DNA of 64,000 bases from IMG/VR virus record IMGVR_UViG_3300027971_000028, positions 32,001 through 96,000 of that record. One strand, given 5' to 3'. Origin of the DNA: a virus. Below the pieces are notes generated by a model. The model did not search any database, had not been told where the DNA came from, and worked only from the letters and a program-made list of their open reading frames with translations. A program made the position numbers and the translations under genes. Shown here in pieces: positions 41,408 to 60,178 of the stretch. Every line of letters begins with the position of its first letter. Positions within the stretch are counted from its first letter, which is position 1.

Positions 41408-41644
41408 TTAAATTACTAGTACAGCCGCTTCTTCTTCAGTAAGGGGAGTTCCAGCAATTAACTTTGCTCTTGCAGAAGCCTTAAGTGCTGCTGTTGCAGC
41501 CGCAGCTTCTTCGCGCTCAGCCTGTGCTGTTGCAAATGCTGCAGCGTCTTGATCACGTTGTGCAATCTCTTGTGCTGTTAACGGAATAGTTTGTGCTATT
41601 CCAGTTGAGCAATCTACTACTATTTTTGTAGGTGTCTCGGCCAT
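41408..41644 (-). CDS. Small protein at the end of the fibre cassette
   Basis: KIVVDCSTG..PLTAQEIAQR then helical Ala-rich region. Confidence 0.7.
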   Translation of the reverse strand: MAETPTKIVVDCSTGIAQTIPLTAQEIAQRDQDAAAFATAQAEREEAAAATAALKASARAKLIAGTPLTEEEAAVLVI

Positions 41645-41646
41645 GT

Positions 41647-42015
41647 TTATGCTACCTCTATCCAGCTAGTTGTTTCTTCATCCCAACGATACATTTTCTC
41701 ATCTGTTGGCATTGGAGTTGGGGCTTGCCAATTACATGTTGCCTCATCTAATACCCATGAAGCGTAAGGTTTTGGCGCAATAAACGCGTCTTTTACGGCG
41801 TCAAATGTGTAGCCAACTCCTGCATAATTCTTGCGATATGGTGTTCCGCCGTTAGCGTGAACTCCACCTTGTGTGTTGTAGGAAGTCTTCTTCCAAGTTC
41901 CACCTAGACCTAGGTCATCGGCTAAATACTCTTGACCCCGATTTTCTTGAGCATCTGGAACAACAAGTACACGTACTACTGTATTGCTCTCATCTATCTC
42001 GGCAAAATGTGCCAT
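41647..42015 (-). CDS. Small Trp-rich protein, paralogue 1 of 3 (possible fibre chaperone)
   Basis: TSYN..RKNYAG.GYT.D...DAFIAPKPY.SW..W.AP. Confidence 0.8.
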   Translation of the reverse strand: MAHFAEIDESNTVVRVLVVPDAQENRGQEYLADDLGLGGTWKKTSYNTQGGVHANGGTPYRKNYAGVGYTFDAVKDAFIAPKPYASWVLDEATCNWQAPTPMPTDEKMYRWDEETTSWIEVA

Positions 42016-42068
42016 ATATTTTTCTCCTTATTCCTTGTAGTTATTATATCACGATTTTTAGGTTAAAT

Positions 42069-57400: not shown

Positions 57401-57914
57401 ATAGCCCAGGCAGTTGGGAAATTTTAATTTTTGCATTAGAATCTAACTCAGCAACACCACTTGCTGCACCTTTTTGAGTAAGAGGAACGTAATCCCCTAA
57501 AGACCCAGTTGCTCCTTGTATAGAATCTAATTGTTCTCTATATGTCTCAGCAATAATTCCAGCTGTTAATAATTCTTCTATACTCTGCTGAGTAAAAGAA
57601 GGTTGTTCTGGAAGTGTTAAATTATCAGTTACAGCTAAAATCACTCCAACGGCAGCACCAGGCTCTATGGCACTTCCAGCGGAGTCCCAAGTAACTCTTA
57701 TTGTTATAGGATTAGATGCGTCATTTACTACAGTTGTTATTTCATATCTAATTGCTCCAGCATTGTTATCGTATAAATAAACACGTTGACCTACTGCTAT
57801 ATCTGCAGGACCATATAATCCAGACTCATCGATAAAAGTTCCAACTAAAGTATAAACTCCAGCACTATATTCTGTTACAGAGGATACTGAAAATCTACCT
57901 GATAATGGTTTCAC
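54453..57914 (-). CDS. Large collagen-like fibre protein (1153 aa) with several globular nodes and a cupredoxin-like domain
   Basis: GXT runs; GVAELD..KI motif; HG-x-x-VGD-like module; GHPF...YVCQFHSSM; C-terminal QMGSGQ..RAQYSSA..GDVV domain. Confidence 0.85.
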
Positions 57915-57928
57915 TTTTTAGCCCCTCC

Positions 57929-60178
57929 TTAGTTAAAATTAAATCTAATAAGTCTATTAGCAGCAGGCATTCCTAAAGATATTTGATTATAAGTTACTCC
58001 ACCAATAATTGAATATATACTAGAGTTAGGCGTAACCATTGCGTAAGTGTCTTCACGCCAAGCAAATATCTGCGGTGGATATCTATCATTATCACTAGAG
58101 TTTAAACCAACTGCTGCATAATTAAATATAAGTGGAGAAGCAACGCTAGAAGGAAGCCTCATAGAGCCTCCTAGAAGAGTAACGGTGTTTGTTCCAGAAG
58201 GAGCGTATAAAGTAACTGTTGATGTAACTCTAGCCATGTTAAATCCTCTTGAATAACTTCCAGAAGACCCATTGCTACTACCTGTATTACCTACAGTCAC
58301 AGTAAATGTATTAGAGTCTGAAACTGTTACTGTTAAAGATTGAGCGCCTGAAATATTTGTATTTCTAATAATTACTCTATCTCCAGTTGTTAGCCCATGG
58401 GAAGTAGATGTAACTGTTAATGTTGTAGTAGAACGACTCCATGTAAGCGCTGATTTTTGGTCAACATCGTATGAATGTAGATAAAATTCTTCACCAGAAG
58501 TGCTTTGTACTTGATATCTTTCAATATAAACAGATGACCCAGCGCCTGCTGGTCCCGTAGGTCCTGTAGCACCTGTTACACCAGCACCAGTTACTCCAGT
58601 TACACCTGTATTACCAGTAACACTCGCACCAGTTGCGCCAACTGCACCCGTTACACCTGTATTACCTTGCGCACCCGTAGGTCCTGCAACAGTTGAGTCA
58701 GCACCAGTCACACCCGTATTACCAGTAATACTTGCACCAGTTGCTCCAGTAGCACCAGTTACACCAGTATTACCAACCGCACCCGTTTGTCCTGTAGCAC
58801 CAGTTTGTCCAGTAACACTTGCACCAGTTGCACCAGTTGCACCTGTATTACCAGCAACAGTTGAGTTAGCACCAGTAGGTCCAGTATTTCCAGTAACACT
58901 TGCACCAGTTGCTCCCGTTACACCTGTTAATCCAGTTGCTCCTGTATTACCAACTGCTCCAGTTTGTCCCGTTGCTCCAGTATTTCCAGTAACACTTACA
59001 CCTGTTTGACCAGTTACACCAGTATTACCTTGCGCACCAGTATTTCCTTGTGCACCAGTTTGCCCAGTAACACTCGCACCAGTAGCACCTGTTCCACCAA
59101 CCGCACCCGTAGGTCCTGCAACAGTTGAGTCAGCACCAGTTGCACCAGTTGCACCAGTTGCACCATTTAATCCTGTTACACCAGTATTTCCAGTTACACC
59201 AGTATTACCAGTTACACCTGTATTACCAGTAACACTTGCACCAGTTGCTCCAGTTGCTCCCGTTGCGCCAGCACCAGTAGCACCAGTTGCACCAGTGTTA
59301 CCTGTACCAGTTGGTCCAGTTGAACCTGTACTTCCTGTATTACCAGTTGCACCAGTTTGACCTGCACCAGTAGCACCTGTTACACCTGTTAATCCTGTAG
59401 GTCCAGTCGCACCAGTTTGACCTGAACCAGTTGCACCAGTTGCTCCCGTTGCACCAGAAGGACCAACAATTTGTCCTACACTGCTCCAACTAGATCCGCC
59501 CCAAACATATAAGTCACCATCAGCATTAACAATGTATGCATCATTAACTGCGTTACCACTTGATGGTAAATTACCAGTTGCTGCAACACTTCCACGAACA
59601 TTTATAGATGTTCCAGCAGCACCAGTATTTCCAGTTACACCAGTGTTTCCAGTAGGTCCAGTTCCACCTGTTGCACCTGTTGCACCAGTAGGTGCGCCAG
59701 CAGGACCCGTCGGTCCTGTTGCACCAGTTGGACCTGCACCAGTTGAACCAGTTCTTCCTGTTACACCTGTTGGACCTGTATTACCTTGTGGACCAACTGG
59801 TCCTCTAGATGAAGCAAATGCTCCTTGAGAATTTGATACTGGGGCTACTCTGTCTAAGTTAGAGAAATTAACACTATTTACGCCAGTTAATAAATAAAAT
59901 TTAAAACTATAAGCCCTAGCCCCTGAAATTCTTACTGTCGCTGTGTAATACCACCCAATTGGAGATAGATCTCTATCATCTGTACATGGAAGTGTGATTG
60001 AAAATGCACCAGAAGCATTTAAAGTTTCTGCCTGTGGGTCACTAATAATTACTGCATCATTAGCATCTAAAATTCTGCCAGAAGGTGTAAAAGTTACTAT
60101 TCCAGCGGCAGCGCTTCCATTTGTATTCGTGAAGCTGCCCGTGATCGTTCTAGTGGATACATCCGCTGGATATGGCAT
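57929..60178 (-). CDS. Collagen-like fibre protein with N-terminal Ig-like anchor domain
   Basis: N-terminal G.VTFTP..G.FSITLP.TDD..P.GW.Y domain, ~400 aa of GXT, C-terminal SHGLTTGD module. Confidence 0.85.

Follow-up and report, generated by a model that had tools for sequence, protein, structure and literature searches.

The 64,000-nucleotide window analysed here (bases 32001-96000 of the 133,336-bp IMG/VR virus record IMGVR_UViG_3300027971_000028, rated complete) contains on its minus strand a fibre island of ~19 kb, in which genes for collagen-like stalks are followed by genes for distal tips and small partner proteins. We found that this gene order is common to hundreds of uncultured and several cultured phages. 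The recurrent elements are named NT (anchor motif), CT (RAQYSSA C-terminal domain), GLY (glycine-rich head), AD (head beta-domain), TRP (Trp-rich protein) and F2 (a small Ala/Glu-rich protein). The island is best read, with a probability of roughly 0.6, as a receptor-binding arsenal made up of stalks, tips, a docking peptide, head-specific accessory proteins and tip-swapping recombination.

According to this reading, trimeric collagen-like stalks, most starting with NT and three ending in the conserved ~105-aa CT, would bear distal tips of two unrelated head types, AD and a TNF-like plus polyglycine type resembling Pam3 gp24. The AD tips would comprise three ancient ordered paralogues, probably forming a heterotrimer, with chains 2 and 3 occurring with or without a fused GLY. 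The first gene of every tip cassette encodes a conserved N-terminal peptide, MPILGxIAS, that would attach the tip to the CT of the stalk whose gene directly precedes it; TRP, for GLY heads, and F2, for AD heads, would most likely serve as assembly chaperones released before maturation, by analogy with Pam3 gp25. Tips would be swapped between phages by recombination immediately past the docking peptide, and this phage would have accumulated several cassettes in one genome.

Order of stalk, tip and partner genes

The domain map of the island was built by all-against-all BLASTP and with hidden Markov models (HMMs) made from the window's own domains. An initial annotation, made from the sequence alone, had divided the island into four cassettes, A to D, naming each open reading frame (ORF) by its low coordinate. 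All these ORFs are present on the minus strand, and the proposed paralogies were borne out for three CT domains, five heads matching Pfam Gly_rich_2, three TRP proteins and three AD domains. The stalk, head and accessory genes are given in transcription order.

Cassette A
57929..60178, minus strand: collagen-like fibre protein, 749 aa; Pfam Collagen 90 bits; PHROG tail and tail-fibre families
54453..57914, minus strand: collagen-like stalk ending in CT, 1153 aa; Pfam Collagen 135 bits, 7 stretches
53526..54452, minus strand: GLY head with variant N-peptide MRHLVGVFSS, 308 aa; Gly_rich_2 35.7 bits; phrog_2295 E 1e-39
Cassette B
51292..53430, minus strand: stalk with NT, collagen runs, duplicated globular insert and CT, 712 aa; Pfam Collagen 136.5 bits; NT and CT HMMs
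49812..51173, minus strand: NT-anchored collagen fibre, 453 aa; Pfam Collagen 64.9 bits; NT HMM
48618..49454, minus strand: GLY head, 278 aa; Gly_rich_2 39.9 bits; Pam3 gp24-like
48274..48621, minus strand: TRP-B, 115 aa; phrog_7759 E 5e-35; ATGA overlap with 48618
Cassette C
46379..47854, minus strand: protein with two FN3 domains and GLY, 491 aa; fn3 50.1 bits, Gly_rich_2 50.6 bits
46023..46388, minus strand: TRP-C, 118-121 aa; phrog_7759 E 2e-30; its ATG at 46379 overlaps the head-gene stop
Cassette D
45328..45861, minus strand: mini-stalk with NT, short collagen run and CT, 177 aa; NT and CT HMMs
44733..45323, minus strand: AD1, 196 aa; AD HMM; N-peptide MPILFGTIASS, the only AD of the three to carry it
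43429..44733, minus strand: AD2 fused to GLY, 434 aa; Gly_rich_2 48.9 bits; AD HMM at residues 1-165
42069..43412, minus strand: AD3 fused to GLY, 447 aa; Gly_rich_2 67.7 bits; AD HMM at residues 1-180
41647..42015, minus strand: TRP-D, 122 aa; phrog_7759; structure model with predicted local distance difference test (pLDDT) of 96.7
41408..41644, minus strand: F2, 78 aa, Ala/Glu-rich; F2 HMM E 6e-43

Gene order was scored in two sets of viral contigs, namely (i) 80 contigs out of at least 587 positives, chosen by TRP alone and with ORFs labelled by the window-derived HMMs, and (ii) 80 contigs out of 332 positives, chosen by the CT domain alone and reduced to 73 loci by dereplication. Within the TRP-picked set, 66 of the 81 cases that could be scored have GLY in the gene directly upstream of TRP, the two genes being mostly -31 to +15 nt apart, and within the CT-picked set 54 of the 73 loci have an AD or GLY gene immediately following their last CT gene; the loci are related to one another, and such counts overstate the number of independent events. 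The gene-order statistics proposed with the initial annotation thus support a cassette grammar that is conserved far outside this genome.

The order typical of the CT-picked loci starts with a CT protein, to which F25 or an F1/SM2-like small protein and then another, short CT protein are often added, and continues with a tip cassette, for which four types were recognized: AD AD AD F2; AD AD-GLY AD-GLY TRP F2; AD AD AD-GLY TRP F2; and GLY TRP, in the last case optionally with F20 in between. Cassette D is identical to the second type. TRP is present in all 24 complete GLY-containing cassettes of these loci (the four GLY cassettes that lack TRP are truncated at the end of a contig and were excluded) and in none of the 45 cassettes without GLY. 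F2, placed at the cassette end, occurs in 27 cassettes with AD and in none without it; in F2 (41408) the AD heads have an accessory family of their own, the second after TRP. The statement that cassettes B, C and D each close with a Trp-rich paralogue is right in that each has a TRP gene, and needs amending for D, which ends with the 78-aa F2 gene after TRP; in cassette A, TRP is missing.

The arrangement is found again in cultured phages. The siphovirus phiPsal1 of an Actinobacteria host has F1/SM2-like, GLY and TRP genes in this order, the myovirus Melnitz-3 has the GLY-TRP pair twice, and GLY is followed by TRP in CRP-207, the podovirus HTVC025P and HTVC008M. A 41.6-kb siphovirus contig carries CT, F25, CT, AD1, AD2-GLY, AD3-GLY, TRP and F2 between Dit and a phrog_1885 minor tail gene, and the whole cassette there sits inside the canonical tail-tip module. 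A megablast search of the island against 50,697 phage records gave nothing relevant.

The GLY gene of phiPsal1 (L001:7105-8001; MG835450 ~15857-16753) is a 298-aa ORF matched with E 7e-37; the record misses it and lists phiPsal1_022 and 023 there, both small and of hypothetical product. Many of the loci L088-L163 have an 85-aa F25 or a 106-aa F1 protein between the two CT genes, and in many of them the ~65-aa F20 sits between GLY and TRP in cassettes with long heads (540-880 aa).

Head domains and their accessory proteins

All the glycine-rich proteins listed above exceed the gathering score of Pfam Gly_rich_2 (PF21722; 24.3 bits), and the heads fall in phrog_2295, a PHROG of unknown function. 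The AlphaFold model of head 48618 (pLDDT 73, with moderate values of 49-69 in the glycine loops) matches Pam3 gp24 (7ypx_A; Foldseek E 4e-5; Z 15.0, root-mean-square deviation (rmsd) 2.7 over 172 aa, 30% identity), the Bxb1 tail-tip chain 9d93_Qb (Z 12.3) and the TNF-like/glycine-rich domains of ALK and LTK (Z ~7). The GLY family profile also finds the gp24 sequence (E 0.016) with the C-terminal GiiivqY strand aligned; the C-terminal GSGIVIIRY of 48618 aligns with QGIIIVQY of gp24. As modelled, the island head is a TNF-like beta-sandwich with glycine-rich strands that closes with a C-terminal strand, as does Pam3 gp24. Head 53526, whose start codon abuts the stop of 54453, is likewise a TNF-like and polyglycine domain head, and 46379 has an N-terminal motif before its FN3 pair and a short C-terminal extension past GLY. 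The gp24 head of Pam3 recognises the host, and its folding needs gp25, a 3:3 chaperone encoded directly downstream (PMC9608196).

The TRP proteins belong to phrog_7759, another PHROG of unknown function, are paralogous by BLASTP (48274 vs 41647, 52% identity, E 2e-38; 46023 vs 41647, 38%, E 1e-21) and contain 4.1-6.1% tryptophan, the mean for the island being 1.4%. Clustering at 90% identity gives at least 8000 clusters for the family, all of them without a name or a Pfam domain; a PDB sequence search with TRP gave nothing, the ESM Atlas returned no named cluster and no structure, and the family profile did not match gp25 by sequence. The TRP-D model (41647) has one helix (residues 21-34) and a C-terminal half of Trp-rich beta hairpins. 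In a fold scan of 48,161 PDB representatives, independent of Foldseek, Pam3 gp25 (7ypx_a) was the sole match at Z >=5, with Z 5.5, rmsd 2.1 over 55 aa and 20% identity, a score below the Z of ~8 needed for confidence; the next best match had Z 3.6, and Mu Tfa gave Z 2.4 only. The alignment pairs TRP residues 1-81 with residues 3-57 of gp25, a stretch coinciding exactly with the fibre-binding domain of the Pam3 chaperone.

The match to the gp25 N-domain, weak when taken alone, and the strict genomic coupling to gp24-like heads together make TRP a candidate dedicated chaperone of the preceding GLY head, which is its best reading and is preferred over the part in the appendage itself that the initial annotation had given to the Trp-rich protein. 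TRP might instead remain on the virion as a structural subunit or adhesin of the tip, attached to the GLY head and binding a host glycan through its Trp hairpins, in the manner of gp38 on gp37, but we consider this unlikely. Trp-rich hairpins are typical of carbohydrate binders, and the most conserved part of TRP is its Trp-rich C-terminal 85 residues, which are kept behind other N-termini in 255 longer proteins; there is also one natural head-TRP fusion (P0179, 577 aa). However, such fusions are very rare (1/255), the best and only notable fold match of TRP is a chaperone domain, and the position and size of its gene are typical of tail-fibre chaperones. In addition, four TRP for about nine heads fit a shared catalyst better than a stoichiometric subunit.

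Several observations weigh against the chaperone role. The gp25 match is modest (Z 5.5 over 55 residues), the C-terminal half of TRP is without the gp25-type alpha-helical trimerisation domain, and the Pfam scan of the island proteins gave no match to a tail-fibre-assembly family. The genome has about nine glycine-rich proteins but four TRP genes, with cassette A and several heads outside the window lacking an adjacent TRP, and the TRP homologue of the cyanomyovirus S-SSM5 is located among 2-oxoglutarate (2OG)-Fe(II) oxygenases, with the nearest GLY gene 2.8 kb away.

TRP homologues were located at 35357-35737 of S-SSM5 (L177), a T4-like cyanophage, and at 55824-56405 of the pelagimyophage HTVC008M (L178). 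Their neighbours encode 2OG-Fe(II) oxygenases, phytanoyl-CoA dioxygenases, a 'ferrochelatase' and a leprecan-like gene, which hints at a link between fibre-head assembly and protein hydroxylation.

The second head type, AD, was recognized by BLASTP matches of 44733 to the N-terminal ~165-180 aa of 43429 and 42069, the copies being ~34-38% identical. In a tree of 29 AD triplets the domains group by position and not by locus, forming three clades (29/29, 28/29 and 28/29) with Shimodaira-Hasegawa-like approximate likelihood ratio test (SH-aLRT) values of 92-97; 44733 belongs to the position-1 clade (29/29, SH-aLRT 97), 43429 to position 2 and 42069 to position 3, and GLY-fused and unfused forms are intermixed within the clades. 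Since this triplication is ancient and conserved in order, the three chains probably form a 1:1:1 heterotrimer. AD is also the C-terminal domain of collagen-bearing or other fibre proteins, and because of this it is better seen as a distal head domain than as an adaptor; the adaptor function given to 44733 in the initial annotation did not hold, this gene being the first of three paralogous AD head chains. PDB sequence searches with AD and with an AD-GLY protein found no relative, and for AD1 the ESM Atlas returned 'hypothetical protein' clusters only, with no structure; a PDB sequence search with F2 found nothing.

Stalks, the N-terminal peptide and tip exchange

The Pfam Collagen cutoff (27.2 bits) is passed by 57929, 54453, 51292 and 49812; the mini-stalk 45328 scores just 17.6 bits. 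The motif MPIxFPxSP..WxWNG (NT) is common to the N-termini of 51292, 49812 and 45328, and CT closes 54453, 51292 and 45328, with identities by BLASTP of 50% over 105 aa between 51292 and 45328 (E 8e-22) and of 38% between 54453 and 45328 (E 6e-12). The long stalk 54453 has several globular inserts, and its CT (RAQYSSA...GDVV; residues 1040-1153, CT HMM E 3e-51) is a candidate socket. The C-terminal part of 45328 matches phrog_21510, 18179 and 8780, and a PDB sequence search with this protein returned low-complexity collagen matches only. Fibre 49812 has two GDxWYD..YYDGxW repeats and a different C-terminal domain, not CT, matched by phrog_38058 at residues 305-435. Neither NT nor CT is found in 57929, which has a tail-fibre-type N-terminus (phrog_14726, residues 2-91), long Gly-X-Thr runs and a ~190-aa C-terminal globular domain with a weak End_beta_barrel match, below cutoff. 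CT also ends proteins annotated as minor tail or virion structural in 245 records of cultured phages, 201 of them from Gordonia phages, in which a small minor tail gene directly follows the CT gene; small phages have a 120-aa protein consisting of little beyond CT.

Flanked by collagen runs, a globular insert of ~100 aa in 54453 (residues ~906-998; 54921-55199, minus strand) resembles a cupredoxin in its ligand pattern, with GHPFW at residue 945 and C-QF-H-SS-M at 992. Pfam scans of the stalk sub-domains, this insert included, gave nothing above cutoffs.

The N-peptides MRHLVGVFSS and MPILFGTIASS were said to follow CT genes, and they do. They are part of a conserved motif tied to this position, with the consensus M-P-I-L/I-G-x-I/V/W-A-S on 47 of 51 distinct first tip proteins after a CT gene and MPILGxIAS on 1 of 64 AD or GLY genes in later positions. 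The peptide is common to two non-homologous tip types, AD and GLY, and we infer that it may dock the tip onto the CT of the preceding stalk. Telling against this, about seven genes outside the window carry the peptide and adjoin no CT gene, namely three double-GLY genes, a divergent GLY gene, the gene of a 328-aa protein and the first genes of two further AD triplets, so the peptide could have a partner other than CT. The peptide and CT are encoded within ~40 nt of each other, and linkage would therefore explain any co-variation between them.

Further parts of the fibre-tip system lie outside the window at G000 97979-101109, 107445-112274 and 116143-120872. The three double-GLY proteins and the divergent GLY start with MP[IL]LGT.ASQN, an NT-collagen gene is present there too, and a fourth TRP gene (G000 98953-99297) is placed before a double-GLY gene. 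A serine-recombinase-like ORF (G000 106187-106837) is located between oppositely oriented head genes that bear the peptide; it invites comparison with invertible tail-fibre switching of the Gin/Cin type, in which an invertase acts on inverted repeats around alternative fibre 3' segments.

It is quite improbable, in our estimate, that stalks and tips are independent appendages with no plug and socket between them, CT being a distal receptor-binding knob, the N-peptide anchoring the tip to the baseplate, and adjacency reflecting co-regulation and a recombination hotspot. The seven peptide-bearing genes away from CT would fit such a layout, as would the occurrence of tip domains behind other N-terminal anchors (MTKARDLANL, MANKDFKVKNG) the location of CT at the very C-terminus, where receptor-binding domains usually sit, and the 120-aa small-phage protein, of which CT is nearly all. 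Contrary to it, the peptide is found on 47 of 51 tip genes after CT, usually with overlapping stop and start codons, an AD or GLY tip comes after the CT gene in 54 of 73 loci, and the tips vary far more in sequence than CT does, whereas a receptor-binding knob would be expected to be the variable part.

Docking of tips onto CT stalks, the reading that we prefer, can be widened to a general code in which any CT stalk takes any tip starting with MPILGxIAS, tips are mixed or combinatorial, the AD chains are obligately 1:1:1 with the peptide on chain 1 alone, so that up to three tips could sit on each trimeric stalk end in a branched arrangement, and TRP and F2 are new chaperone families. We hold this extension to be tentative, possible but not the likelier outcome. 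There are three CT stalks in the island and about nine peptide-bearing tip cassettes genome-wide.

Judged from the CT tree, tips are exchanged often, since tip type is almost unlinked to CT phylogeny: on the tree of 42 distinct last-CT domains tip type changes 16 times (minimum 2, shuffled mean 18.2), and the well-supported branches alone force 5-8 tip changes per type. The 103-kb relative G001, 92-96% identical, has stalks 91-96% identical to those of the window and differs precisely in the tips; 48618 is kept only over its first ~27 codons and 44733 only over its first ~52 codons, extra AD triplets are found after F2, and 229-aa and 84-aa genes take the place of cassette C. The interchangeable tips foreseen by the initial annotation are thus supported, the same CT type carrying AD or GLY tips and the G001 breakpoints falling just past the conserved tip N-termini.

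The remaining features of the island include small genes, a gene remnant and candidate signals.

51239..51277, minus strand: intrinsic-terminator-like hairpin with an 18-pair stem and then a T-run, just past the 51292 stop
49454..49801, minus strand: SM1, 115 aa, small beta-rich; phrog_30535 E 4e-39; TAATG-coupled to head gene 48618
48183..48281, minus strand: 32-aa stub ORF (MTKARDLANL...) overlapping the TRP-B stop; the gene is intact at 229 aa in G001
47854..48156, minus strand: SM2, 100 aa, small beta-rich, F1-related; phrog_1276 E 7e-8
45885-45893: TGCTATAAT box, upstream of mini-stalk 45328
42043-42051: TGATATAAT box, upstream of TRP-D (41647)

The gaps after TRP-B and TRP-C open with an identical 23-nt sequence, ATGACTAAAGCAAGAGACCTAGC, the start of the MTKARDLAN... 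gene, which is intact in G001 (L087:4674-5363); a second stub, of 13 aa, lies in the gap 45862-46022 after TRP-C. Cassette C is marked as an insertion by the two stubs of the 5' end of the 229-aa gene that flank it. The same N-terminal motif heads a 417-aa GLY protein (L159) and a 426-aa AD protein (L008). It is very improbable indeed that the repetition is a mere trace of recent tandem duplication in one genome, with no wider meaning: the paralogues are adjacent and the duplicated 23-nt junction sequences flank cassette C, but the paralogues are old (TRP 35-52% and AD ~34-38% identical), the position-specific AD clades take in dozens of other phages, and the occurrence of the same orders in sipho-, myo- and podoviruses of different hosts contradicts duplication alone.

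The order NT-fibre, SM1, head, TRP is found also in L087 and L159, the F1 HMM matches SM2 weakly (E 8e-4), and phiPsal1_021, annotated as a virion structural protein, matches both the F1 and SM2 HMMs. Paralogy of SM1 (49454) and SM2 (47854) is not claimed; hhalign gave no support for homology of SM1 with SM2 or F1.

Regarding the cassette borders of the initial annotation, the island gaps of more than 90 nt (95-161 nt; 53431-53525, 51174-51291, 48157-48273 and 45862-46022) agree with the A-D borders, except that 51292 is by spacing a unit of its own. Many junctions had been described as TAATG-coupled; of the 16 junctions, four (49454, 48618, 47854 and 44733) have a TAATG or ATGA overlap, and most others are gaps of 0-16 nt. 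Terminators had been placed at the borders, but the sole strong hairpin (51277-51239) falls within cassette B. A consensus scan showed no enrichment of sigma-70-like sites (28 vs 42.8 expected) or of terminator-like sites (11 vs 12.8 expected). The TGNTATAAT site occurs just twice in the whole 64 kb, both times in island gaps (45885-45893 and 42043-42051).

The plus-strand half of the window encodes a portal/protease fusion, a major capsid protein, a major tail protein, a tape measure, at 16441-18582 a Dit-like protein and at 18607-21264 a minor tail protein of phrog_1885, after which come replication genes. The phage is classed as a large siphovirus from its tape measure, major tail, Dit-like and phrog_1885 genes. 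The island lies 20 kb from the tail genes, flanked by an exonuclease (60326-61528) and glycosyltransferases (39236-41139).

The glycosyltransferase genes (window 37562-41139) adjoin an island rich in Gly-X-Thr collagen, and the protein encoded at 40102-41139, with GT2 and tetratricopeptide repeat (TPR) domains, belongs to phrog_13126. The small phage contig L149 also has a glycosyltransferase (phrog_3408) just upstream of its CT genes.

Significance and relation to known fibre systems

The system is a real and widely conserved set of modular fibre tips of a known kind, that is, polyglycine receptor-binding heads with downstream chaperones. New are the very large unrecognised partner family TRP, the second head type in ordered triplets with its accessory F2, the conserved pairing of putative docking peptide and CT domain, and the accumulation of several cassettes in one genome. 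The host range of a phage is set by its receptor-binding modules, and in the abundant freshwater and marine phages of SAR11, OM43, roseobacters, planktonic Actinobacteria and cyanobacteria nearly all of these genes carry no annotation beyond 'hypothetical'; through the grammar, several very large families without annotation receive functional labels that can be tested, and assembly partners are predicted. A short peptide and a ~105-aa domain are a possible universal joint for tip swapping. If the docking and chaperone roles are true, they would help to read host-range determinants from metagenomes and to express hard-to-fold glycine-rich heads for receptor studies.

Several receptor-binding proteins (RBPs) per virion, with conserved N-terminal attachment modules and variable distal parts, are reportedly found in CBA120 (TSP1-4), G7C (gp63.1/gp66) and Klebsiella phiK64-1, systems that are said to use T4 gp10-like branching domains and tailspikes. 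Unlike in these branched multi-RBP phages, the island heads are polyglycine or AD on collagen stalks, and no island protein had a Pfam or PHROG match to a gp10-like branching or attachment domain, although HMM scans may miss a divergent one. The tail fibre assembly proteins (Mu gpU, lambda Tfa, P2 gpG; 5yvq) resemble TRP in being encoded by a small gene right after the fibre and in their specificity for a distal domain, but there is no Pfam match to these families, and the Z of TRP to Mu Tfa is 2.4.

The S16/T2-type gp37-gp38 system (PMC9608196, PMC13243795) also has a separate polyglycine tip, encoded after the stalk gene, that caps a trimeric fibre distally, as is proposed here; gp38, however, is a monomer with a beta-helix middle domain that attaches by short helices, whereas the island stalks are collagen-like, and the matches of 48618 to Pam3, Bxb1 and ALK were not outranked by any match to gp38 in sequence or fold. 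The head fold is shared with the Bxb1 (9d93 chain Q; Z 12.3) and Jabs ORF65 'brush' domains, and these mycobacteriophage polyglycine minor tail proteins are siphovirus tail-tip accessories thought to bind the cell envelope (PMC13252515, 10.64898/2026.07.24.740622). No TRP-like partner or CT and peptide grammar is described for the brush proteins in these papers, and the island phage and its relatives infect aquatic bacteria. Freshwater actinophages have hypervariable islands for host recognition (PMC10202952) that, compared by description, resemble the arrangement of a stalk and an AD triplet, but no domain grammar, docking motif or chaperone assignment is given for them.

Finally, Pam3 gp24/gp25 (PDB 7ypx, 7yfw; PMC9608196) combine a TNF-like and glycine-rich head, ending in the same C-terminal strand, with a small gene directly downstream; the N-domain of the corresponding island product gives a modest match (Z 5.5) to the gp25 fibre-binding beta-sandwich. 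The two systems differ in that gp24 docks to the baseplate by an N-terminal helical bundle, whereas the island heads have a short peptide, AD or FN3, in that gp25 has a helical trimerisation domain, in place of which TRP has a conserved Trp-rich beta region, and in that Pam3 has one head-chaperone pair and the island several.

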